In this document: in pieces, positions 1 through 19,822 of the stretch
Position numbering within the stretch: the stretch's first letter is position 1
Layout: each line of letters begins with the position of its first letter
Virus record (IMG/VR): IMGVR_UViG_3300035703_000222
Coordinates: 1-37,138 of that record
Reading direction: 5' to 3' (one strand)
Length of the DNA: 37,138 nt
Source: a virus
Lineage: Duplodnaviria; Caudoviricetes
The notes under the pieces: model-generated
What the model was told of the DNA's origin: nothing
Seen by the model: only the letters and a program-made list of their open reading frames with translations
Databases searched by the model: none
Program-made: the position numbers and the translations under genes

Positions 1-1
1 T

Positions 2-3000
2 AACCTTCACTTCGTCTGCTCGCAAAGCTGAAAGCTCGTTTCGATACCCGCGAACAGCGCTACCCATGGATGCGAGTGTGCGTCGCTCTGCGAACCGATC
101 GCGCACGTCGTCGCGCTGCATGTACTCTGTGCCCCACAAGCTGTTCAGCTCGTTGAGCGCAGTCTCTGCAGTCTTGGCGTTCTCAAAGAACTCGGTCTGA
201 TTCTGCTTGCCAGTGTTCTGCTGATAGAAGCTGCGAAGAATCGGGATCTTGTTCTTATCAATCGCTGCATCAAGACCGATCTCTGTGGTGAGCATCACGG
301 AGTCAGCTGCGTCACGCGCAAAGCCGCCGGCACCGCCGGTCATAAAGCCGAACCAGTAGCGCAGCGTTTCAGGCGACACGTCGATGGCGCCCGAGTACGC
401 CGGCGTACCGCCAGTAGCCTCGTTCATGGCTTGAGACAGCTGTTGGAACATTGTTCCGCGAGTTGCCGTCCAGAACTTCTCGCTGTCCGGCTTGTTCGGT
501 TCGTACACCGAGTCCGGCATCAGCGGGATACCCTGCTCTGTCATGTTCGAAGCGCTGACCAAGATCGGATCGAGCAAGGTCGGTGCCGCAAACGTCGCCG
601 GGTTCTCTAGTGAACCGAACGGCGAGAAGTGGGTGAAGAAGGAGTCGCGCATGAAAGCGCCAACCTTCGCCAACGGCACCCCACGCTGCAGGTCGCTGAG
701 CGCGTAACCGATGTTCACGAAGAAGCCAGAGCCGTACGCCATCGGGATGGTGATGGTGTCTCCGTCCTCGGTGAAGAACAGCAGGTTCTTAATCTTTGCC
801 TGCTTGTATAGCTTCTTGTCCCAGTAAGGCTCGTCGTCATCCCCACTGTCGGCGGCGCCGAGTTGCGCAATCGCATAGCCCAGTGCAATCAATGAACCGC
901 CGAGCATTGCGCCAGCTTTGCCTGACTTGAAGATCAGGTTGTACGTCGCGCGGGTACCCTGAATGTTCGCGTTGGCAAACATGTAGAGCAGCCCAAGGTG
1001 TGGGGTCCACTTGCCCTTGCGATCGAAGTTCACCGTCACGTTCTTTGCGGCGTTGGTCGCGTCCTGCCGGTTTGCGCCGGCTTCGAGGCGAGCTAAGTAC
1101 GTCGCGAATCGCATGGAGGTTTCGATCGAGCCAGCGGCATCGAGCATCAGGTCTTCGACCTTGTTCACCACGCCAAGCATCTGTGTGCCGTAGGTGCGCG
1201 GATCAAGTGAGCCAGACGCCTGAGCAGCACGGAAGCGCTGCTGTATGTCTTGCTGGATGTCTTCGATTTCCTTGATGTCGAGGTAGCCGACCTTGCCGCC
1301 ATCAGCGCGGTACATGTCGTAGGCTTCCTTCAGCGTGACAGTGCGTGCAGGCTGACCCGGCTCACGGATAGTGATCGTGTCGTTGTTGCCCTGCCACGTA
1401 CCGTCTCGCTCAGCCTTCCATGCCACGCGCGCTGCTTTGTACAGACGTGCATACGCTTTGGCTGCGGTCTTCGGACCGTACTTCACCAAGTTCCAGAAGC
1501 CGCCAGTCTCGGTGTTGCGGATAGCGTCAATAAACACGAACGCCGGCGAGAGCGTGGTACGCAGCTTCGCGAGCGTCTGCATAACGCCAGACCACACGCG
1601 GAAGTACAGCTTCGCCTGATCGCCGCTGCCGATCGCGCCTGCCATTTGCAGGTCTTCGAGCATGCCCGGGTCTTTCACGCGGATGAACACGGGCTTACCC
1701 TGCACACGCACGGCGATCGTCTCGCTCGGGTCCTCGTTGACCTCGAAGGCGACACGCACGGTTCCTTGCGCGTAGCCAAGCGGGGACATGCCGCCCTTGT
1801 AGTACGAGCGCGAGACCTTCGGTGCGTTGACCTGCCACAGCTCTTGGTCCGGGTTGTCGCGGACAAACTGTAGAAGCAGTCGGTAGACCTTGTTCTTCTC
1901 GGCAAGCACGATGGCGTCCGAGTAGTCCTTCAGGATGTTCTCAAGGATCTGACCGGCGCGGGTCTCGCGACCCTTAGCTACCTTCACGAACGGGTTGCGC
2001 GGGTCGGTGCGTCCCGGCGATCCGACGCCAAGCGACTGACCAGTTGCTTCGTCAAAGTTCTCAAAGCCACGAAGCGGAACGTAGTTCGGGTTGTCCTTCT
2101 TCCACTGCGCAATGACCGCAGGCTCAACCAGTCCTTCGCTAAGCAGGACGTTCTGCGTCATCTGCGTAATGCGCTGGAACTCCCTCGCAATCTGAGCGAT
2201 CTGCGGGAAGTCACGGCGCGAACGGAAGCCGTTTACAATCTGCATTGCCTCGGCATTAGTCATACCTGAGCCGCCGTCAGTGCCGAACTGTGTCGGGTTG
2301 CGCTGCTGAATGATTGCGTTACGCTCCGGCGCGTACACGGCGTACAGATACTGAGCGACCTCGTCGAGGTTCACGCCTAGCTTCGCCGCCTTCTCAATCA
2401 GCGGGATCTCGACTTCCTTCTTGAAGCGATCGAGACGACCGCGCACTGCGCCACGCATACGCTGGCTTGCCGTAGTAACGTCTGTGTTACCAATGACATT
2501 GCCCTGCGCATCACGGATGTCGAGAGTGCCGCCCTGCTGTTCAACAGCCTGTTGCACATCTTCGACGCGCGACATGCGGTTCTCGAACAGGTTCTCGAAG
2601 TACTTCTCGCGCAGCGTGCGAGCTGGCAACGTGAAGCGCTGACCGGGGATCGGCACACGGCGAGCGAAGTTGCTGTTACGTAACGGCGTGAGCGCGCGAT
2701 TCGGTACGGAGCCGGGGTTCTTCGCGGTCGTCGGGGTGACCTTGGCAAGGCTGGGTAGCCCGCCCTTGATCTTCCCTGACAATGCAACCGCCTTACCTTT
2801 GTTGAAGTACAACAGGCTGCCGCTATTCAGTTCACGGTTGATCTCGGTCAGCGAGTTCGGCTCGTTCACCGGGTACACGCTGGCGATCTCGGACGCCTTG
2901 TCGTTTCCGTAACGCACGTCAGGGTGAACGATGGCGACCACAGGGTTGCCGTCTTTCACCATGTCCAGCACGACCTTGTAGCCGTACCGGCGCGTCATAG

Positions 3001-6000
3001 TGCCGCCTTCGCTGCGGATCACGGCGACCGGGTCGGCAATCATCTGCGGCACGGCGCGCAGCTCGTCAACGGTTAGTGCAATACGAGGAGCAGCCGGGAC
3101 AATGAGTCCAGCCGCATTACGGCGCACAGCGTCCGCGCTCGTAGACTTACCAACGAACTCTGGATTGACGACCTTGACGACCGTGCGCGGCTCGATGACG
3201 AGCAGCTGGTCGGGCGCGCCGACAGCGCGCAGTACGGAGGGGTTCTCGCTGATGCCGAAGAGTTTCGGCGCGCGAGGATCTTGGTTGGCGGCTAGCTCGA
3301 CGTCTCGTCGGCTGAATTGCCCGACTGACTCGGGCTCGGCTTTCTGACTGTCTGCGTCAGATACGTTTCCTGAGACGACTTGCCCTTGGTCGCGATCGAG
3401 GCGCGCAGCTGCTCTTTCAACTGCAACACGTATGGGTTGTCCGAACCATACTGGGCTTCCAGATCTTGTATTCGTTTCGGCAGTTGCTCGATCAATGTAC
3501 TCATCGTAGTTCTCCTTGCCGACGACGATCGTATCGTATTGGTAGGTCTTGGCAAATGCCACGCCGTCCATCGTCGACACTTCGGCGGCGATACTGTCTA
3601 GCTGGCGGGTCTTATCCTCCAGCACACGCTCAATGAATCCCTCTGTCAGCACGTCCTTGCGGAACTGCTCATCCCAGCGCATTGAGATCTCGGGGATGAA
3701 CTGCAGGCGCACACCGATGTACTGTCCGCTCTGAGCTCGCGGATCAACAGCTAGCGTAAAGCCGTCCGCGCCCTTCGACGTGAACTGCTCCAGCACAGGC
3801 ATAACAGCATCAAGCGCGCGCTGGTCTCGGAAGTAGAGCTCGACACCGGGGCGGGCGTTAGCGCTGTCTTCGTCCGGCTGCAGCACCTTGGACACGAAGA
3901 TGTCGTACTGGCTGTTTTCTTTGGAGACCTGTGCGATCTCCGCGATTGCCAGCGCCGGATTGTGTACGCCTTTTTCGACCGTCCACTCGGTGTCGAACGA
4001 CTGCTCAATAGTGTTGCCGTACAAGCCCTTGGTCGGCAGGACGCGCGCAGCGATAACGCTGCCATCTCGCTTGAGGGCGTACATCACCCGAGCCTGAGCA
4101 GAGCTAGCGGTGCCTTCCTCCGGAACCGTCTCGCCCTGCTGAACACTCCAGCCAGCGATGTAGCGCTCCATGGGCTGGCTTTCGATGTTCTCCTCGAAGC
4201 TTCCGCCCTCACCTTGCGCACTGGTCCAGCCGTTGCTCGCCCACAGTTCCTTCTCGACAAACCACGCAATGGCTTGCAGGTCAGGCGCAGTGACGTCGAT
4301 GCCTTCGTCGCGCAGGCGCTGGGCAACCTTATCCATCACGCGCGCACCAAATCCGAACTCGCCGGTAACAGCTGTTGCCTTAGTGTTCCAGTTACCCGTT
4401 ACGCCCTGCTCAGCCGGCGGCGGGATGCGGGCAAGCACGTTGTTACCCGCGGCAATGTTCGCCGCACGGCGCAGCATGCGAGCTGCCCATACGTCGATGG
4501 TTGCCATGTCGGATTGACCGATCAGGTTCAGCGCGAAGTTGCGAGCCTTCGGTGCCTGTCCCGGGTGTATCTGTCGCCACACGTTCAACAACGCCAGCAT
4601 GGCGTTGCCCGAGTTCATGCCATACAGCTTGCCGCTGATCTGGCGGATCTTGTCCTCGGACGGGTAGTCGCTCACATTGCCGCCGTCAGCGATGTAATCG
4701 GCGAACTTCTTCAGCTCAGCATTGAAGTCGCCACGCACGAACCGACGCATGACGTCGATCGAGAACACCCAGTTAGTATCGACCGGTGTGTTCGGCGAGG
4801 TGGCGCCGAGCAAGTCGGCGAGTAAGTCACCCATTCCACCAAACTCTCGGCGCAGCACTTCCGTGACGTTGCGATACCAGTTCTTGTGCGACAGGATGAC
4901 GTTGGCGTTCCGATCGCCAGCAACGGCGCGTCCATAGACGCCCTTCACTAGCTTGTAGAACTCGTCGCCAACCTTGTCCGCCCACGGCTCATTGAGTTTT
5001 TGCGGAGCGCGACCAACGCCATCGGGCACGTTGTACTTGTATGCAACGGGCGCCCAGTTGAGCTCTGCGTCGGCAGGGTCCTTATCTTTGGGAACCAACA
5101 CGCCGCGCACGAATAGCGGAGCCCAGCCCTGCGACTCAGGGAAACGGCGCTTCGTCTCGATGGCTTGCGCGATCAGGTCATCCAGTACAGCGCGCGGGAC
5201 TTTGTTCTTGATGCCATCACGCTCGATGGCTTGCTGCTCATCTGCTGAGAGATCTGCAGTCTCAGCGACAGCGCGCTCGGTGCGCTGCACCCCAAGGCGG
5301 AATCGATTCGCGGGAGTTGCTACCTGCTGTGTATTCGTAGCTGCCGGTATTGTTTCCGGCGCAACAGAAGGCGTTACCGGTTCTGCAACAGGCGCTGCAG
5401 CGGGTTGCTCGGGCTGTTCGCGAACTGCTGCCGGCGCGCCAGCAACTCCACGTCTTGACGCTGCTCGAACTGGTCGATCGTCTCGTTCTGCGGGCTGCTC
5501 TTCGACAGCTTCTCCAGAATACCGATCTGGCGCGAAGCCGATTGCGAGGTTGATTGGGTATCCATCTTCTTTGACTCTGCGGTTGAGTTCCGCATACATC
5601 TTCTCCTTCAGGTCGGCGACATTATACCGCGGTAAATCATTGATGGAGCCGTACGCCACACCATTTTTTCCGTTGTTCACGATGCGGAGAGGCACGTTGG
5701 CAAACAGCGTCAACAGCTGTCGCGCCACGTTAGATGCTCCGTCGTGAGCCTCAGCCAATACCTCGATTGGCACCGTACGACCTACGCGCTCAGCACGCTT
5801 CATGGCACGACCAAGCGAGTCCATGGCGTCCGAGTTGATGTAGTAAACCTCGGTCGGAAGTCCTGACGCGAGCGACTTGTTAATCAAAGAAGTCGCTGTA
5901 TCCAGTTTGCTAAGTGTACCGTCGTACAGAATGACGTTCGGCGATCGCAGGTTGAGCTGCTTAACCGCAAATCCCTTACCTGATCCGCCGCCGCCAGCCG

Positions 6001-8923
6001 TGAAGCGAACGATATCGCCCTGCTCCGCGTTAGTAAGGACGTAGTCGAACACCATCTTTGACAGACGTGATGCGCCTTCGTGGACATAGGCGGCATAGAC
6101 CGCAGGGTTCTCCACGTAGATCGGCGACAGCTCACGTGCGTGATCGGCATTCACCTCGCGACCAAAGCGACGCAGGTATTCATCGACCATACCCTGCGGG
6201 TCTTGATCGAGAGCCTGCTTGAATGTGTCAGACGCCAGCTTGCCGCGCTTCTGAATGTCGCGGTTGAACTGACCGCCTACGCGCTTGTAGGCGTCGGCTT
6301 CATCGGCAGGATCTGCGGCGGTCGCTGCCGGAGCATCCGTTTGCAACCGCTGTGCTGGCGCTGTTGCTGGAGCTGCGGGAGCCGCAGGAGCGTCTTGCGC
6401 AACCGGGGCAGCTGTTGGCGCAGCGGCAACAGAGGCGGTTTGCTGGGGAGCCGGGGTAGCCTCAGAGTCCTGATCTAAGAACGGGTTCCTTAGCCGCGGC
6501 TTGAGCGCATTGGCGAACGCTACTTTCTGGGCGAGCGCGGGCGGCATAGGGGCTGCCGTAGGCGCTACCTGTGCGGCAGCAGGCGCAGCGGGCTGCGCCG
6601 GGGCTGCCATGCGCTTCTGAGTCTCACGCTTCTGGTACTCAGCAAACGCAGCCGTCACCGCCTTCTGCGCTTCCACCAGCCGCGCGCGTTCTTTGATGTA
6701 TTGCGGACCTTTGATGACCGCCAACATCTTCTGCAGCACGTCGGCGAGAACGTCGCGGAAAGTCTTGGCGACCTCGGGGTTCTCGAAGCTATCGAACATC
6801 TGACCAAGGGTCTGCGGATTGCGGACAAGGTCACCCACGACGTAGGCAACGAGCTCCGAGTCGAGCTCGCGCTGGGTCATGTCACGACCGACCTCGGCAC
6901 GACGGCGCTGGTTCAGGTTGTCGATCAGCGTCTGGCGGATCGTGGCGTCCATGGCAGGAACCACAGTGTCCCGCAGAGTCTGGTAGACGTCGGCATGCCG
7001 GGTCTCCAGTACGTGGGTCAGTTCGTGCCATGTGGTGTCGAGCAAGTCGACGTCTTTGGCGCTAACAAGGATCGTGTCGCCAGAACGGTAACCACTGAAC
7101 GCACCGAGCTGTTGACCCGAGGCGGTCGACAGCTGTTCGCCAAAGTCAACGAAGTGGACCTTCACGCCGAAGGCAGATTCGAGAGCGCCCTTGAAACGGT
7201 TCAGGCGAGTATCAGTCGTGACCAACCCAAGATTCAGGGTCTCGGTTTCGTCTAAGCCGAGATCCTGTTTCATGCTAGCCACGGCAGCTGTAAAGCTATC
7301 CTCAGGCGGCTGTTCAACAGCTGTTGCCTGAGCAGCCTGTTTGGCTTCAAGGTCGGCGACAAACTGGTCTTCAGACTGAGCCAATGCCGCGTCTACAGGA
7401 TTGACTGAAGCGCTATTTTCCGGGGTATTCGGCAGGCTCAGATTTTGAGCCTGTGCCGTAGCAGGAGTCTGTTCGGGTCGATCCTGTTGAACGCCAACAG
7501 CTGTTCCCGGCGTTTGAACAGCAACGTCGCCCAACTCGCTGTCCGCAGGGCGGATATTTTCCAGCGGGTCAAGTGCAACATCGCGATTCGGGTCGAGCGC
7601 TGCCCGGACCTGTCGGTCAACGGATTCTGGATTAACCCGGGAGCCGTCGATCGCGCGCTTGAGGTAAGCGTCGAGGGCGCTTTCCGGCGTGGACTTCGCG
7701 CCACTGATAGCGCCGACCGGGGCGCCGCCCAGTGCGCCTAGCACTAAGTTGGCAGCCGAGCCTTCGCCGATTTCTTTATTCGTAATCTGCGAGCGGATGC
7801 CAACGTCAGAGGCGATACCCTCAGCGGTTTCCTGCAGACCTTCCTCGGCTGCGCCAAAGGCAGCGCCGGCGGCAGTAGCGCCAGCTCGGTTGCCACCCAC
7901 GCGGCGCAGGATGTCGTCGTAGGCGCCGTTTAGCAGCTTACCGGTAACCCGGGAGCCAAGGGCTGCCACCATGCCCTGCAGTAAAGCGCCGGTCTCTGCC
8001 GCCTTGTCCGTGACGATCTGGCGGGCTTCCTCGGTGGGCACGCCGTTACGCAACAAGGTGTTGTAGTAGGGGCTGACCTCGGTGAGCTGCTCGTCGGACA
8101 GGTTGCCGACGTACTCGCGTGCCGTGCTGGCAGCCTCTCCAGCCGCCTGCGTGCCGCCAACAGCCATTGCTGCTGTTGGGCTGCGGGTAATGACAGCTGT
8201 CGCCACAGTGGGCGCGAGCGAGCCCAGTACGCCAGCTGCTTGCAACAAGTAGCCGGACACAGTCGGATCGTCGCCAAAGCTGAACTCGCCCTTGAGGATG
8301 TTGCCGCGCGGAGTCGCGCCTTCGAGGCGCTGCTTGCCAGCCTCCGAGATGCCCGACTCGATATCGCGCTGCACCCGTGAGCCGTACTCAGCAAGCCCTT
8401 CCGCCCCGGGGATCTTCACCCCAGAAACTAGGCGGTCAAATGCGACCGCTGCTTTCTCGCGGTTCTCCGCCTGCTCGGCGTACGACATGAATCCCGTGGC
8501 GTCCATGAGCCAGTCGCTTGCCTTCTGCAGCAAAGCGCCAGCAGCCACCGGCTGAGACTCGCCCGTAATGCCGCGACGGATAGCGCCCTTGATGCCAGCC
8601 TCGGCGCCAGCGGGCATGGAGAGCGTGCCGCCAACCAATGCGCCAGTCGCCTTACGACCGGCGTCCTCGGCAAACTCGCCGGCACCGTATTCCAGTCGAC
8701 GCGATTCCTTGTCTGTCGGTATTGCCTGCGGACGCGCGAGTGGGTCTGGAGCGGGCAAAGATTTCGCCGGCTGCGTCAGGACGTCGTCATACGCTCCAAG
8801 CAATCCGCCACGCACAGACTTCTGTTCAATAACAGCTGCGCGCTCGCGGTTCTTCTCGGTCGCTTCTCCGGTTCCGGAATACGGATCTCCAGTGACATCT
8901 CGGTAGGCATTCAAAAGACCCAT
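2..8923 (-). CDS. Giant polyvalent internal virion / DNA ejection protein (>=2974 aa, 3' end beyond window), LPD38-like C-terminus
   Basis: Manual translation from ATG at 8923 (MGLLNAYRDVTGDPY...) finds no in-frame stop down to the window edge, and the ORF track omits it. Motifs: HELTH (7013-7027), AGGGGSGKG (~5972-5998), PKARNFALNLIG..TIDVWAAR (~4480-4555), MuF-C-like ..PQMIADPVAV..EIASVYP, and LPD38-type AKNVTVNFDRKG / LYMFANANIQG / IDVSPETLRYWFGFMTGGAGGF. Last gene of the ejection-protein block. Confidence 0.92.
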   Translation of the reverse strand, partial: MGLLNAYRDVTGDPYSGTGEATEKNRERAAVIEQKSVRGGLLGAYDDVLTQPAKSLPAPDPLARPQAIPTDKESRRLEYGAGEFAEDAGRKATGALVGGTLSMPAGAEAGIKGAIRRGITGESQPVAAGALLQKASDWLMDATGFMSYAEQAENREKAAVAFDRLVSGVKIPGAEGLAEYGSRVQRDIESGISEAGKQRLEGATPRGNILKGEFSFGDDPTVSGYLLQAAGVLGSLAPTVATAVITRSPTAAMAVGGTQAAGEAASTAREYVGNLSDEQLTEVSPYYNTLLRNGVPTEEARQIVTDKAAETGALLQGMVAALGSRVTGKLLNGAYDDILRRVGGNRAGATAAGAAFGAAEEGLQETAEGIASDVGIRSQITNKEIGEGSAANLVLGALGGAPVGAISGAKSTPESALDAYLKRAIDGSRVNPESVDRQVRAALDPNRDVALDPLENIRPADSELGDVAVQTPGTAVGVQQDRPEQTPATAQAQNLSLPNTPENSASVNPVDAALAQSEDQFVADLEAKQAAQATAVEQPPEDSFTAAVASMKQDLGLDETETLNLGLVTTDTRLNRFKGALESAFGVKVHFVDFGEQLSTASGQQLGAFSGYRSGDTILVSAKDVDLLDTTWHELTHVLETRHADVYQTLRDTVVPAMDATIRQTLIDNLNQRRRAEVGRDMTQRELDSELVAYVVGDLVRNPQTLGQMFDSFENPEVAKTFRDVLADVLQKMLAVIKGPQYIKERARLVEAQKAVTAAFAEYQKRETQKRMAAPAQPAAPAAAQVAPTAAPMPPALAQKVAFANALKPRLRNPFLDQDSEATPAPQQTASVAAAPTAAPVAQDAPAAPAAPATAPAQRLQTDAPAATAADPADEADAYKRVGGQFNRDIQKRGKLASDTFKQALDQDPQGMVDEYLRRFGREVNADHARELSPIYVENPAVYAAYVHEGASRLSKMVFDYVLTNAEQGDIVRFTAGGGGSGKGFAVKQLNLRSPNVILYDGTLSKLDTATSLINKSLASGLPTEVYYINSDAMDSLGRAMKRAERVGRTVPIEVLAEAHDGASNVARQLLTLFANVPLRIVNNGKNGVAYGSINDLPRYNVADLKEKMYAELNRRVKEDGYPINLAIGFAPDRYSGEAVEEQPAERDDRPVRAASRRGVAGAPAAVREQPEQPAAAPVAEPVTPSVAPETIPAATNTQQVATPANRFRLGVQRTERAVAETADLSADEQQAIERDGIKNKVPRAVLDDLIAQAIETKRRFPESQGWAPLFVRGVLVPKDKDPADAELNWAPVAYKYNVPDGVGRAPQKLNEPWADKVGDEFYKLVKGVYGRAVAGDRNANVILSHKNWYRNVTEVLRREFGGMGDLLADLLGATSPNTPVDTNWVFSIDVMRRFVRGDFNAELKKFADYIADGGNVSDYPSEDKIRQISGKLYGMNSGNAMLALLNVWRQIHPGQAPKARNFALNLIGQSDMATIDVWAARMLRRAANIAAGNNVLARIPPPAEQGVTGNWNTKATAVTGEFGFGARVMDKVAQRLRDEGIDVTAPDLQAIAWFVEKELWASNGWTSAQGEGGSFEENIESQPMERYIAGWSVQQGETVPEEGTASSAQARVMYALKRDGSVIAARVLPTKGLYGNTIEQSFDTEWTVEKGVHNPALAIAEIAQVSKENSQYDIFVSKVLQPDEDSANARPGVELYFRDQRALDAVMPVLEQFTSKGADGFTLAVDPRAQSGQYIGVRLQFIPEISMRWDEQFRKDVLTEGFIERVLEDKTRQLDSIAAEVSTMDGVAFAKTYQYDTIVVGKENYDEYIDRATAETNTRSGSPVWFGQPIRVAVERAAARLDRDQGQVVSGNVSDADSQKAEPESVGQFSRRDVELAANQDPRAPKLFGISENPSVLRAVGAPDQLLVIEPRTVVKVVNPEFVGKSTSADAVRRNAAGLIVPAAPRIALTVDELRAVPQMIADPVAVIRSEGGTMTRRYGYKVVLDMVKDGNPVVAIVHPDVRYGNDKASEIASVYPVNEPNSLTEINRELNSGSLLYFNKGKAVALSGKIKGGLPSLAKVTPTTAKNPGSVPNRALTPLRNSNFARRVPIPGQRFTLPARTLREKYFENLFENRMSRVEDVQQAVEQQGGTLDIRDAQGNVIGNTDVTTASQRMRGAVRGRLDRFKKEVEIPLIEKAAKLGVNLDEVAQYLYAVYAPERNAIIQQRNPTQFGTDGGSGMTNAEAMQIVNGFRSRRDFPQIAQIAREFQRITQMTQNVLLSEGLVEPAVIAQWKKDNPNYVPLRGFENFDEATGQSLGVGSPGRTDPRNPFVKVAKGRETRAGQILENILKDYSDAIVLAEKNKVYRLLLQFVRDNPDQELWQVNAPKVSRSYYKGGMSPLGYAQGTVRVAFEVNEDPSETIAVRVQGKPVFIRVKDPGMLEDLQMAGAIGSGDQAKLYFRVWSGVMQTLAKLRTTLSPAFVFIDAIRNTETGGFWNLVKYGPKTAAKAYARLYKAARVAWKAERDGTWQGNNDTITIREPGQPARTVTLKEAYDMYRADGGKVGYLDIKEIEDIQQDIQQRFRAAQASGSLDPRTYGTQMLGVVNKVEDLMLDAAGSIETSMRFATYLARLEAGANRQDATNAAKNVTVNFDRKGKWTPHLGLLYMFANANIQGTRATYNLIFKSGKAGAMLGGSLIALGYAIAQLGAADSGDDDEPYWDKKLYKQAKIKNLLFFTEDGDTITIPMAYGSGFFVNIGYALSDLQRGVPLAKVGAFMRDSFFTHFSPFGSLENPATFAAPTLLDPILVSASNMTEQGIPLMPDSVYEPNKPDSEKFWTATRGTMFQQLSQAMNEATGGTPAYSGAIDVSPETLRYWFGFMTGGAGGFARDAADSVMLTTEIGLDAAIDKNKIPILRSFYQQNTGKQNQTEFFENAKTAETALNELNSLWGTEYMQRDDVRDRFAERRTLASMGSAVRGYRNELSALRADEVKV
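3292..3504 (-). CDS. Nested +1-frame small protein (70 aa), candidate immunity/antitoxin
   Basis: ATG at 3504 with AAGGAG (3512-3517) 7 nt upstream; TTGCCA-16nt-TACGAT promoter upstream. MSTLIEQLPKRIQDLEAQYGSDNPYVLQLKEQLRAS... reads as a helical hairpin. Codons are genome-typical in this frame while the host frame shifts to atypical codons (AGA, CGA, ATA). Confidence 0.7.
   Translation of the reverse strand: MSTLIEQLPKRIQDLEAQYGSDNPYVLQLKEQLRASIATKGKSSQETYLTQTVRKPSPSQSGNSADETSS
3528..3555 (-). promoter_or_regulatory. Putative sigma70-type promoter inside the giant gene, driving nested ORF 3292..3504
   Basis: -35 TTGCCA (3550-3555), 16-nt spacer, -10 TACGAT (3528-3533), ending 10 nt upstream of the AAGGAG site. 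Confidence 0.5.
5374..5595 (-). CDS. Nested +1-frame small protein (73 aa), candidate antitoxin of the zeta-like kinase
   Basis: ATG at 5595 with AAGGAG (5603-5608) 7 nt upstream and a perfect TATAAT (5621-5626). Begins where the kinase domain ends. C/G-ending codons (CTG, GAG, CAG, TTC) occur in this frame. Confidence 0.62.
   Translation of the reverse strand: MRNSTAESKKMDTQSTSQSASRQIGILEKLSKSSPQNETIDQFEQRQDVELLARRQQFANSPSNPLQRLLQNR
5621..5634 (-). promoter_or_regulatory. Putative internal promoter -10 element with overlapping palindrome
   Basis: TATAAT at 5621-5626, 12 nt upstream of AAGGAG; the palindrome TACCGCGGTA (5625-5634) overlaps it. No good -35 (GCTCCA at 17-nt spacing). Confidence 0.45.
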
Positions 8924-8926
8924 GGA

Positions 8927-10171
8927 TTACTCCCCTTGCTGGGAACCGTTGGCACGGGAAAGTATCTGGTTAACCAGATCCTGTCTGTACTGTTGCCAGT
9001 AAGTAACCCCGTTGTCCTCCATGTCGAACACCTTCTGACTTGCCGCTCTGACCTCATCCCTGTTTGCGCCGGACGCTTTGAGCCGAGCAAGGTTGTCCTG
9101 CGCCGCCTTCAGCTCCGCATCGTAACGTGATCTGGCGCGCTGATTGAGGTTGGAAACCATCTCGCGCGCCGTGACGTGCGCCTTGCCGCCAGAGAAGTCT
9201 TCTTGTTCGATGAGGATGGCGCCGAACTGATGAACAAGCCCACTCGCGCCGTCATCTGGCACAGTCTCTGCTTTTCCGCTTGGACCTCTAATGGTGAAGC
9301 CAGTGGCGAGGTATTTGCCGGCATTCTTTGACTCAAGATCCGAAAGCGTACGATATGCGTCGCTATCCGCCATCCTCTTTGACGCTTTGCTGGAGTTCGT
9401 CTCTGCGTTCGTAAGAGCTGCGGTTCCCATGCGATCCTTGTAGGTACGATCCGCGGCGTTGTTCTTCAGGTCATCCCCCGCCTTAATCGCCTCACGGCTA
9501 CCCTTGATCATCGAGTCGATCTCAGGCGAGAACGCCGCAGCAAGGTGACCAATAGGTACGCGCGTCTTCGTGCCGTCTGGCTTTGTGCTGACAGCAAAGA
9601 TATTCAGGAAGCCCATCTCGTCCTGACCAGACTGAACAGACTGCAAGCCTTCAAGCTTGAACTGATCCGCAATGCGCTTAACGGCGTCCGCATCGCCACC
9701 GAAGGCGCGCTTGAAGTCGTCAGCCACGCCGTATGCCTCCACCTTGCGGCGGAAGTCGACAAGACCCTGAATCTCCTCAGGCTTGGCAAGACCGAGCTTC
9801 TGACGCAGAGCAACCGTGCGCATCTGCACACGCGAAATCGCTTCCATGCCCTGACGGCTAGACGGGTCGATCGCTTCCGTCACGAACTGCTGTGCAGGGA
9901 AGTTTCCGTCCGCATCAGGAGTCGGGATCGCACCGCTCGGCTGCGCCTGCGCCGGCTTCTTCACGAACATCTCTTCGTTGTAAATGCCCTTCACGCCGTC
10001 GAGGTATTCGCGCTCACGCCCGCGCTGCTCTTCTTGGTAACGCTGATCGGCAACCTGCCCCTTGAGCTGAATACTGGTCAGCGCAGAGCGACGATTGTTC
10101 TCCATGTCGCGCATGTTCGCGTCCGCCGCTTCGTTCAGGACGGCGCCGATCGTCTTCATAGCCTGTGCCAT
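8927..10171 (-). CDS. Internal virion / ejection protein (414 aa), function unassigned
   Basis: Long helical, charged ORF between the S74-containing ejection protein and the giant protein; TAATG coupling with the upstream gene. Confidence 0.75.
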   Translation of the reverse strand: MAQAMKTIGAVLNEAADANMRDMENNRRSALTSIQLKGQVADQRYQEEQRGREREYLDGVKGIYNEEMFVKKPAQAQPSGAIPTPDADGNFPAQQFVTEAIDPSSRQGMEAISRVQMRTVALRQKLGLAKPEEIQGLVDFRRKVEAYGVADDFKRAFGGDADAVKRIADQFKLEGLQSVQSGQDEMGFLNIFAVSTKPDGTKTRVPIGHLAAAFSPEIDSMIKGSREAIKAGDDLKNNAADRTYKDRMGTAALTNAETNSSKASKRMADSDAYRTLSDLESKNAGKYLATGFTIRGPSGKAETVPDDGASGLVHQFGAILIEQEDFSGGKAHVTAREMVSNLNQRARSRYDAELKAAQDNLARLKASGANRDEVRAASQKVFDMEDNGVTYWQQYRQDLVNQILSRANGSQQGE

Positions 10172-11466
10172 TAGGATCTCCGAATCGCTGAGTTGCGGAC
10201 GGGCTTGTGCGTTTTCTCGACGAGGTCATCGAGCGCTTCTTTGCCCACCTTACGAACCGTGTCAGCCGGCAGGATGTACTCTCCATTCGAGAGTAGGATC
10301 GGCTGACCGGTGTCGCGGTTCATTGCCTGAACGCTGTCCGAGGTGCCCGTGCCGGGACCCGTAATCTTCCCGCCCTTCTTGCTGTGGTTCTTCCCACCAC
10401 GCACAGAGCCGCCGTCAGCCATCTTCTTGCCACCCATGCGCTCAACCTTCGCATCGAGGTCCTTAATGGCTGCCATGGTGACGCCGAGGGCGTCCTGCAC
10501 GGAGATAGTGCGACCGTCGCCCATTCCGGTTTCACGCTTGAAATCTTCTGCGTAGGTGCCCACATGTTCGCGGTTGTCGCCCTTGTACTTCCAAGTCTCA
10601 ACGGGCATGTCGCGCACCGCATCGAGCGCAGAGCCGCTCTTCACCGGAGCCTTGCCTTCCTTCATGTCACGCGAGGACATGAACGAGAGACCCGCGCCAA
10701 CGAGTGAGCCAAGACCCTGCATTGCGGCGCCGCCAGCCTGTGATGCTGCGAGCTCGTTCTGGTAGCCCATGTTCATCACATTGGCGATACCCGACTGCGC
10801 ACCGAGCGCACCCTGTAGACCGCCCATGGCGCCCTGATAACCAGCGAACATCGGCGCGTTCTGCGCGTTGAACAGACCTGCGTTGCTGTTACCAACAGAA
10901 GAGCCCGTTCCAATCGCGCTGAGCTGCGTAGCAGGCAAGTTACGACCGAGGCTGATCGCGTTCATGCGCTTCGCATCGACCACCTGATCGGCAGCCATGC
11001 GGGCATTGTTCATCGCGCCTGCGCGAGTCGCCGCCGTGCCCAATGTAATCTGGTTGTTCAGGTCTGCGAACCGCGCGGCGTTCGGGTTGATGCCCATGCG
11101 AGACAAATTGCGCGCAGCGACTGAGCGCGCAGCTGCGGTAGCCTGCTCAACGTCAGAGGCGGCGCGACCGGCGTACTGATTGCGAACAGCTGTTCTGTCT
11201 TGATTCATCGCCTCCGAGACCATCTGGTCTTCGAGGGCGCGGAACTTCTGACGATCCATCTCGGCGTCGCGAGCAAGACGCATGGACATCCGCTGCCCTT
11301 CGAGATTTGCCTGCACCATCTGCTGGTAGAAAGGCATCGTCTCTTCGTAGCGGCGCTGTCCGAAACGTAACTGGTCGCGCCCAAGGGCTTCCATCTGTGA
11401 GCCGATCTGACGCATGGCGTCAGCTATCGGGCGCATATCAGGCGGCTTCGGTGCGTCACTGCACAT
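10171..11466 (-). CDS. Ejection/pilot protein (431 aa) with peptidase S74-like domain and C-terminal GPGTGTSDS domain
   Basis: Gly/Ala/Gln/Met-rich N-terminal part (MCSDAPKPPD...), then SSRDMKE..VETWKYKG..HVGTYAEDF plus coiled coil (S74-like), then GGKITGPGTGTSDSV..LSNGEYILPADTV. Confidence 0.8.
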   Translation of the reverse strand: MCSDAPKPPDMRPIADAMRQIGSQMEALGRDQLRFGQRRYEETMPFYQQMVQANLEGQRMSMRLARDAEMDRQKFRALEDQMVSEAMNQDRTAVRNQYAGRAASDVEQATAAARSVAARNLSRMGINPNAARFADLNNQITLGTAATRAGAMNNARMAADQVVDAKRMNAISLGRNLPATQLSAIGTGSSVGNSNAGLFNAQNAPMFAGYQGAMGGLQGALGAQSGIANVMNMGYQNELAASQAGGAAMQGLGSLVGAGLSFMSSRDMKEGKAPVKSGSALDAVRDMPVETWKYKGDNREHVGTYAEDFKRETGMGDGRTISVQDALGVTMAAIKDLDAKVERMGGKKMADGGSVRGGKNHSKKGGKITGPGTGTSDSVQAMNRDTGQPILLSNGEYILPADTVRKVGKEALDDLVEKTHKPVRNSAIRRS

Positions 11467-12064
11467 GGGCTTCTCCTACAAGAACCTTCGTAAGTTGATT
11501 GGCTGTGTGTTGGTACCCGAGCGCCTGCAATAGTTCACCGGCGCGATTCACCGTCTTAACGGTCACGCGGATCTCGGTGATACCGAGCGCGTTCAGGACC
11601 GTCTCGACATAGCGAATGAGCTTGATGCCAAGGCGCCCCTTGCGGTGGTCCCTGCGAATGAAGATCGTGTCTTCCTCCGCGATCCACTGCCGGGTGTGCG
11701 TTGAGCGAGTCAGGTACATCATGCAGTTGCCGACCAGTTCGTGGTCGGGTCCGCGAAGTGTGAAGAGCACGAACCGCCCTGCACGCTCCGCGTTGATCAT
11801 GTATTCGTAATCGACGTTCAGCGGCAAGCTGTGTCGATAGGATTCAGTCTCTTCCCAGTGTGCGGCATGCAGCGGCTTAATCTCGTCGACGCAATCTTCT
11901 ATGCGCTCAACGGCGAGCGAGTAACCCCAGTGTGTATCCTTTGGGATACTGTGGAGGTCGATCGGCGTAGGCTGCTCTTGCGCCGCCATGCAGAGCCCAG
12001 AGGCAAGCTCGGGCGTCAAGACGTTGCCCAAATTTCGCTGCAACGCTGCCATCAGATCATTCAC
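11456..12064 (-). CDS. GNAT-family acetyltransferase-like protein (202 aa)
   Basis: Motif-A-like IFIRRDHRKGRLGIKLI and C-terminal LLQALGY; position between tail and ejection genes as in many podoviruses. Confidence 0.8.
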   Translation of the reverse strand: MNDLMAALQRNLGNVLTPELASGLCMAAQEQPTPIDLHSIPKDTHWGYSLAVERIEDCVDEIKPLHAAHWEETESYRHSLPLNVDYEYMINAERAGRFVLFTLRGPDHELVGNCMMYLTRSTHTRQWIAEEDTIFIRRDHRKGRLGIKLIRYVETVLNALGITEIRVTVKTVNRAGELLQALGYQHTANQLTKVLVGEAHVQ

Positions 12065-18886: not shown

Positions 18887-19822
18887 TTAGTAGACGAGAA
18901 CGTGGTTTGCGTAGAACCGGGTGTTGCCGAACGTATACACGGCGCCCGGGTACACGATACGCTCGATCTTCACGATCTTCTTCGGGCTGCCGAGCTCGTT
19001 CACGACGCTGTCCCCAAGCTCGACGACCTTCGCGAGACCCATGTCCTTGTACTCAGGCACAGGGACGAGGGACGCATATCCCTTGCCGAGGATGTACAGC
19101 GGATGCTCTTCGGACGCTCGAAGCGTAGAGCCGTCCTCGAAGGTGTACTGGTACATCGGGCGATCTGTGCGGACGATGACCTCGGTCACCGGCACGGCGA
19201 CGTTGGTCTTTAGTTCCTCGCTGTACGTGAGGATGAAGTCGCCGACCTGTACCTCTCCGATCGCCCTGAGCGAGCCGTCGCCCATAAGGATCAGGGTGTC
19301 GGGCGTGAAGCAACAGAACGGGCATCCCGTGTACTCGGTCTCAAGGTAAACGCGCCAATACCTGGTGTTACTACCCGACGTCGCGTTGACCTCGAACTCA
19401 GCTATTCGATATGCATTAAACCCAGTGCCTAGGACGAAGTTCGCTGTATTGCCCGTCCCGCTGCCGGATGCAACTAGAGTGCTTCCGTCAACCTGACCGG
19501 CGCCAAATGAGCCAGCGACTCTGGTCCATGTCCATGAAGCGGACTGGGTACATGAAATGGAGACTTGCGCTGTGCCGCCAGCTTCACCAATGAAATAATC
19601 CTGAACCAAAACGCGGCTGCTGGATGACGTGCTGCCGTCAGGGCTAAACGTACCGCCTGAAGGCGGGACGCTTTTGCCATAGAAATCACTAAACCCAATC
19701 GTTCCGCTTGGGAATGTGCCGCTGGAGTGTGATGTCCCGCGATACGAGTTCAGGTCATTACCGCGACCAAACTCCGCGTTGATCTGCGACATGCTGATCT
19801 CGCCTGACGACTGAAGCGGCAT
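18887..19822 (-). CDS. Putative fibre-tip adhesin with C-terminal Hint (intein-like) domain (311 aa)
   Basis: N-terminal SG.ISMSQINAEFG..P.GTIGFSDFYGKS motif seen in small fibre-associated proteins. Hint domain from Cys171: CFTPDTLILMGDG, I.EVQVGD.I, LRASEEHPLY, VELGDSV, FYANHVLVY-stop. Confidence 0.88.
   Translation of the reverse strand: MPLQSSGEISMSQINAEFGRGNDLNSYRGTSHSSGTFPSGTIGFSDFYGKSVPPSGGTFSPDGSTSSSSRVLVQDYFIGEAGGTAQVSISCTQSASWTWTRVAGSFGAGQVDGSTLVASGSGTGNTANFVLGTGFNAYRIAEFEVNATSGSNTRYWRVYLETEYTGCPFCCFTPDTLILMGDGSLRAIGEVQVGDFILTYSEELKTNVAVPVTEVIVRTDRPMYQYTFEDGSTLRASEEHPLYILGKGYASLVPVPEYKDMGLAKVVELGDSVVNELGSPKKIVKIERIVYPGAVYTFGNTRFYANHVLVY

Follow-up and report, generated by a model that had tools for sequence, protein, structure and literature searches.

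The host gene and its enzyme module

The window, meaning the whole 37,138-nt stretch of DNA that was analysed, covers the virion-gene region of a podophage, with all genes on the minus strand, including those for an SU10-type portal and adaptors, capsid and terminase. Positions 2..8923 (minus strand) are occupied by one gene, hereafter the host gene, which runs off the window and codes for a large polyvalent protein that exceeds 2974 aa and has Zeta_toxin (aa 998-1092), DUF7178 (aa 1401-1485), MuF_C (aa 1949-2045) and LPD38 (aa 2703-2878) domains. The combination of LPD38, MuF_C/PBECR and a Zeta-like kinase in one chain, encoded among late virion genes, is shared with the large polyvalent proteins treated in the main text of Iyer et al. 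2017 (PMC5512222), where late synthesis, packaging and injection were proposed for them; judging from gene context and from that work, which deals with other phages, the present protein may be packaged and injected as well. Directly upstream of the giant-gene cluster lie an ejection-region gene with a Peptidase_S74 match (10171-11466) and a GNAT acetyltransferase gene (11456-12064, both on the minus strand), and a 311-aa ORF with a weak Hint-domain match (18887-19822, minus strand) is found among the tail genes.

Residues 1236-1822 of the host protein are predicted to form a single compact module (pLDDT 89, pTM 0.86) of three domains, G, S and F. Domain G (4193..4906, minus strand) corresponds to DUF7178 and has an OGG-like helical glycosylase fold: a fold search aligned it with the OGG structure 3n0u over 183 of 209 residues (Z 7.5, rmsd 4.6), and its K224 and D242, 18 residues apart and invariant in 44 aligned sequences, may be compared with K249 and D268, the catalytic residues reported for hOGG1 (PMC3397491). 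Domain S (3878..4177, minus strand) has a SAM-lyase-like ferredoxin fold, matching SAM lyase 6zm9 over 115 of 129 residues with rmsd 3.3 and a Z score of 8.6, which is tied with those of unrelated ferredoxin folds (AcrB porter domains, Z 9.0). Its conserved G-x-Y...E...Q residues (G398 in 43/44 aligned sequences, Y400 in 40/44, with F in 4, E405 in 43/44 and Q437 in 44/44) parallel, by order and secondary structure and not by residue-level superposition, the G56/Y58/E69/Q104 series reported for the Svi3-3 SAM lyase (PMC7877911). Domain F (3500..3865, minus strand; RPGVELYF...GVRLQFIPE...YD) is a second ferredoxin-fold domain without the SAM-lyase motif, and a profile comparison of S with F revealed no homology (prob 0.8). 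Helix alpha2 of domain F (3575..3637, minus strand; module residues 528-548, corresponding to host aa 1763-1783) constitutes the predicted binding surface described below.

The fold scores are middling, and the SAM-lyase and glycosylase assignments are leads and not proof. No sequence-level PDB match was found for the G-S-F module, a Foldseek search of the module against PDB gave nothing at E<=0.001, an S-F query of the ESM Atlas returned no usable match, and the annotated GenBank phages contained no match to the module. In its ferredoxin fold and in the order of its conserved Gly/Tyr/Glu/Gln residues, domain S resembles phage SAM lyases (T3 SAMase and Svi3-3; PMC7877911) and SAM-AMP lyases (PMC12255297). 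However, the known SAM lyases assemble as homotrimers, and T3 SAMase is encoded by an early gene that stands alone (PMC7877911), while S is one part of a virion protein, flanked by an OGG-like domain and a second ferredoxin domain, and comes with a dedicated small partner, a kind of gene for which the accessible text of PMC7877911 and PMC12255297 yielded no phage-encoded counterpart among SAM or SAM-AMP lyases.

A small ORF in the +1 frame at the end of domain F

In the +1 frame of the host gene lies a small ORF of 70 aa (3292..3504, minus strand), with its ATG at 3504 and its stop codon at 3294-3292; a Shine-Dalgarno (SD) sequence, AAGGAG, is located 7 nt before the ATG (3512..3517, minus strand) and belongs to a family-wide SD excess over the synonymous null. 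The original prediction had described this ORF as a nested gene with a full promoter, coding for an amphipathic helical hairpin unlikely to be a random off-frame read, and the letters of the promoter hexamers, of AAGGAG-7-ATG and of the 70-aa peptide are all present at their positions. A longer version of the ORF, with 87 aa counted by an ORF finder from a TTG at 3555, was rejected, since relatives start at the ATG. Among the same-strand alternative frames of the whole 8.9-kb gene, only two ATG-initiated ORFs of at least 35 codons have an SD (3504-3292 and 5595-5374); both are in the +1 frame and at the end of an enzyme domain, and the same listing includes one TTG candidate at 2127.

In the window alone, synonymous resampling given the host amino acids produced AAGGAG by chance in 51%, the ATG in 34% and the open frame in 40% of cases, which counts in favor of reading the ORF as an off-frame shadow of conserved host-frame residues. 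Since the in-window signals are each 34-51% likely from host codons, the case for a gene has to come from its relatives; as shown in the next section, the claim that the ORF is no random read was upheld by conservation there, and drew little strength from the window signals with which it had been made.

The conserved core of the small protein (residues 1-58) consists of a helix, a G-x-D/N-x-P turn, a second helix and a short third helix. Its AlphaFold model (mean pLDDT 81) has helices at residues 4-19, 24-39 and 44-52 and a tail that is disordered beyond about residue 60. Cysteines and a hydrophobic signal are both absent, and with them any Rz1-type lipobox. Searches of Pfam, NCBIfam, PADLOC and annotated GenBank phages gave no match to the small protein, the best PHROG match was weak (E 0.27), a fold search returned generic hairpins (best Z 4.9), and the ESM Atlas contained only unnamed clusters, at 0.88.

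Conservation and selection in the nested frame

The small gene is present behind the same enzyme module in more than 150 related phages. We surveyed 235 loci picked by the host frame and not by the peptide (59 + 79, best of 301, + 80, best of 437, + 17), a set in which some contigs recur and which, because scans kept the best 80 of 301 and of 437, contains too few distant G-only or S-only forms. In 218 loci the F domain is complete and has enough sequence behind it; 4 were cut, and 13 had no F match, including 9 that end at a contig edge, one with a diverged F (L257) and three with G but without S-F (L079, L247 and L260). With a profile iterated on the same loci, a small-gene homologue was detected in +1 at the end of F in 215 of the 218 complete modules, and the first-round, non-iterated profile identified it in 148 of 168 new loci; the remaining 3 of the 218 have a +1 ATG ORF at the same spot without a profile match. 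None of the three loci having G without S/F, one of which contains an N gap, yielded a small-gene match. When loci were instead chosen with the peptide, the module lay directly upstream in each of the 22, and no peptide match stood apart from it, so that the proposed tie between the nested gene and the glycosylase/SAM-lyase-like module holds from either side.

Selection was examined in 12 independent pairs. Differences at the three host codon positions number 65/45/156 upstream versus 99/67/59 in the overlap, i.e. the wobble position moves to the nested frame within the overlap (chi2=52, p=5e-12), and pN/pS in the overlap is 0.47 in the nested frame versus 1.22 in the host frame, indicating purifying selection on the nested frame. 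An open start accompanied by an SD of at least 4 nt is present in 131 of 151 loci, compared with 38 expected under the synonymous null, and in L037 a GTG start is kept even though the host residue changes from D to R. While a single-sequence protein search with the small peptide gave nothing, an alignment-based search yielded 212 matches, and 221 independently called proteins (representatives at 50% identity) match the family at E<=0.001; among the 120 matches listed, none has an informative name except for an automatic KpsE/RkpR label on two.

The conservation in relatives, the excess of starts with SD and the wobble shift argue, at the sequence level, that the 70-aa ORF is a real, conserved gene with invariable position and frame, its own ribosome-binding site and selection on its frame. 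The shadow interpretation introduced above could still point to a few host residues in the overlap (W-x-G-x-P-x-R) that look conserved; nevertheless, it is already refuted by selection acting on the nested frame and by persistence of the small gene where the host frame has stopped, the 221 independently called matches also speak against it, and we assign it a negligible probability. Gene callers would miss such genes whenever the giant ORF is intact, which would leave a widespread family, together with its role, invisible in annotation.

Gene architectures and comparison with known systems

The small gene occurs in several arrangements, and its family covers embedded, overlapped and separated layouts. 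Of 159 distinct loci, 88 have a host frame that continues through the small gene; the host stop lies no more than 150 nt beyond the small gene in 22, within this gene in 41 and at its start in 8. At L055 and L057 the host protein ends in ...YDEYL(R/K)*, and the small gene follows downstream as a normal, coupled gene, the pair being situated between terminase genes or head-tail connector genes. The small gene is always in +1, and an in-frame form was never seen in loci of the 235-locus survey; a weak search for a longer fused form of the small protein found none. About 8 layout changes can be counted on a midpoint-rooted tree. An ancestral status of the tandem layout was considered and not established, as midpoint rooting makes the read-through forms basal and places the tandem layout inside one clade. 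In a cassette-like manner, the module gene and its small partner are found between or beside the genes for the small and large terminase subunits in L055 (2225-5147) and L044 (<1-1354).

Across the small gene, the host frame would mostly serve as an unconstrained linker, and further domains could therefore be fused downstream without loss of the partner. The Arg/Gly-rich "linkers" behind such domains would then be explained as read-through of a second gene.

The layout invites comparison with phage MuF polymorphic toxins, in which, according to the accessible text of PMC5576092, a small ORF follows 89% of the toxin genes: in both cases a small gene (<150 aa) comes immediately after a virion-associated effector, a gene that for the MuF toxins has been proposed to protect the producer, and the tandem forms (L054/55, L057-60) share the MuF toxin-immunity layout. 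In contrast to MuF toxins, the effector module here lies within a polyvalent protein, and its partner gene is for the most part nested in +1; moreover, there is no match to an N-terminal MuF trafficking domain, the partner family does not match known immunity domains, and toxicity is only putative. Spanins Rz/Rz1 (PMC6139136) likewise form an interacting pair, as is predicted here, with genes that may be embedded (+1), overlapped or separated, and loss of the upstream stop codon is one route proposed for spanin embedding in that article. Unlike Rz1, however, the small protein carries neither a lipoprotein nor a membrane anchor and plays no part in lysis, and whereas PMC6139136 reports that no spanin family was found to combine embedded with other architectures, the small-gene family spans all of them. 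Neither nested partner genes nor the G-S-F module appear in main-text passages of PMC5512222 ("overlap" and "glycosylase" are absent, and "frame" occurs once, in an unrelated sense), and the listings returned by literature searches, which cover few subscription journals, showed no description of the small-protein family or of nested partner genes in polyvalent proteins.

Co-variation between the small protein and domain F

To locate a partner surface, mutual information (MI) and mean-field DCA were calculated for 153 paired loci (effective number about 80); small-protein columns 1-5 were left out of DCA, and MI matches at column 4 were treated as alignment artefacts. Both methods agree that the strongest inter-protein couplings connect positions 534/538/541/542/545 of the F helix with residues 10/11/14/18/23 of the small protein, i.e. 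one face of helix 528-548 with one face of small-protein helix 1 and the turn. In DCA, the top five inter-protein couplings all join this helix to residues 11/14/18/23 (z 10-16), although intra-chain couplings within the module were noisy in the same analysis. The mean z of the top five is 10.7, a value that did not exceed 6.05 in any of 36 partner shuffles, including 24 done within clades, and the pairs 541-11 and 545-23 are within the top 8 in each of three clades taken alone. The coupled helix is encoded outside the overlap, at 70-130 nt upstream of the ATG, and when both overlap frames were offered the five strongest couplings remained in the nested frame.

The coupled pairs mostly join D/E with R/K, with reciprocal swaps of K/R and E/D. 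The correlation of face charges is -0.74 for the nested frame versus 0.07 for the host frame, for positions selected from these very data. Across 72 non-overlapping sister pairs, compensatory changes of charge outnumber the others by 134:29 at the focus pairs, again chosen on the same data, against a background of 51%; for the whole helix the ratio is 524:317, and four other helices give 49-55%. The charge-swapped interfaces suggest specificity between cognate pairs.

Because the co-variation stands out against clade-aware shuffles, is seen again in each of three clades and is tied to the nested frame, the small protein is likely to bind directly to domain F, in the SAM-lyase-like half of the module. 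It had been predicted that the target would be one of the two enzyme domains encoded just upstream; the contact, to judge from the couplings, is likely with the last helix of domain F, and the part of the prediction that would have allowed the glycosylase as target was not sustained. The contact helix is not the obvious active site, since domain F lacks the SAM-lyase motif. A defined partner surface is what the present case adds.

Since co-variation is blind to contacts in cis versus trans, and since the frame relation is always +1, a programmed +1 frameshift might also be envisaged, yielding a shorter host protein that ends in the small domain and folds back on helix 528-548. We consider this highly improbable: the ATG/GTG start and the SD are conserved, in L028, L033, L050, L074 and L077 a stop codon immediately precedes the ATG, so that the +1 frame is open from the ATG onward only, and by eye no shared slippery run was noticed in the junctions inspected.

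Inhibitor, chaperone or subunit

Such a pair bears on the question of how phages can produce injected proteins with several enzymes while the producer cell stays unharmed. A SAM- or DNA-cleaving module made late would, by analogy, be expected to harm that cell; T3 SAMase is reported to be toxic when highly expressed (PMC7877911). Immunity genes are commonly arranged as small ORFs behind the effector gene, and the MuF toxins of phages follow this pattern (PMC5576092). The explanation that we favor, with confidence that we would place at about even, is that the small-gene product is a built-in inhibitor of the SAM-lyase-like module next to it and docks on the last helix of that module. The small protein would be translated from the late mRNA of the giant protein via its own SD and would clamp the module while the giant protein builds up in the producing cell, so that host SAM and phage DNA would be spared. 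As a chain of its own, it would not accompany the giant protein into the virion, and the module would become active only once injected into a new host. The constant presence of the partner as a separate chain, never in frame even though the host protein fuses other domains, fits an inhibitor that is to be left behind.

Inhibition by the small protein is thus plausible, the main counter-argument being that the contact helix is on F, which does not carry the catalytic motif of S. Binding alone fits an inhibitor, a chaperone or an activating subunit alike, and the small protein may be a binding partner of another kind, either a chaperone for folding or packaging or an accessory subunit serving to complete or stabilize G-S-F. 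The same linkage and co-variation fit such a role, and the location of the contact helix away from the S-domain catalytic motif favors it; on the other hand, a permanent subunit could have been fused as other domains are, yet it is never in frame, and the module models confidently on its own, which is a weak argument. We regard this as a serious alternative, although of distinctly lower probability than the built-in inhibitor. If the small protein is indeed an inhibitor, the phage would encode it specifically against an injected SAM-lyase/glycosylase module, and the charge-swapped interfaces would set specificity between phages. The pair is directly testable, since the small protein has 58 residues, its target helix is named and reciprocal charge swaps are predicted.

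A promoter-like element upstream of the small gene

The original prediction envisaged early transcription of the inhibitor by host RNA polymerase from a full promoter of its own. The element in question, a sigma-70-like TTGCCA-16-TACGAT (3528..3555, minus strand), has its hexamers at 3555-3550 and 3533-3528 and matches in 9 of 12 positions. One such match was found in positions 1-9200 versus 1.7 expected, and under synonymous resampling it has P=0.07, i.e. it is not above chance. The family mean promoter score of 6.57 lies within the range of the synonymous null (6.36+-0.135, maximum 6.70), and matches of 9/12 or better occur in 23 of 164 relatives versus 13.9 expected, the loci being non-independent. 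A -10 hexamer at the 16-nt spacing needs Thr-Ile codons, which are absent from the 10 relatives aligned, so that the element is not conserved at this spacing; four near-identical strains are uninformative on this point. The promoter claim, and the early transcription built on it, therefore found no support, although the small 9/12 excess makes an internal promoter possible in some lineages.

These data bear on another version of inhibition, in which the small protein is expressed early, or from a prophage, via its own sigma-70 promoter and confers superinfection immunity against the module injected by the same or related phages. The element is the sole 9/12 match in 9.2 kb and lies 24 nt before the ATG, and the count in relatives as well as the cognate-pair specificity suggested by the swapped charges would be in keeping with such immunity. 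Nevertheless, with the expectation and P value given above for host codons alone, a family mean inside the null range and a -10 box that is not conserved at its spacing, we consider this version unlikely.

Other nested ORFs in polyvalent protein genes

The second +1-frame ORF with an SD in the host gene (5374..5595, minus strand; 73 aa, AAGGAG-7-ATG) is located at the end of the Zeta-kinase domain in the same layout, and its product is a candidate epsilon-like partner. In L004 (about 8637-8790), behind a Zeta domain that is 31% identical, a +1 ORF preceded by GAGGAG-7-ATG begins from about the same host position. Related-strain contigs over the 5595-5374 overlap differ in 3/383 and 4/408 letters versus about 10% in the upstream domain, although the pieces may be from different strains.

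We tentatively suggest, with somewhat less than even confidence, that polyvalent virion proteins may be strings of effector-inhibitor cassettes, with each inhibitor encoded in the +1 frame of the linker behind its enzyme, the second such inhibitor in this host gene being the one behind the Zeta kinase.

Two further +1 motifs, QF.TQ.EF.EA...W and ETE.DG, are either fused to the C-terminus of the small protein or present in a separate ORF behind it, just before the next host domain; the loci with these two motifs are L001, L002, L045 and L102, and L008, L103, L112 and L245. They may represent more nested genes in the same linker. In L079 (4090-8116), which has no small-gene match, the G domain is followed by several diverged stretches that by eye resemble SAM-lyase/ferredoxin repeats. 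In L260 (about 3850-4000), the end of a stand-alone G domain overlaps a +1 ORF with a strongly acidic tail, which is possibly a DNA-mimic inhibitor of the glycosylase-like domain.
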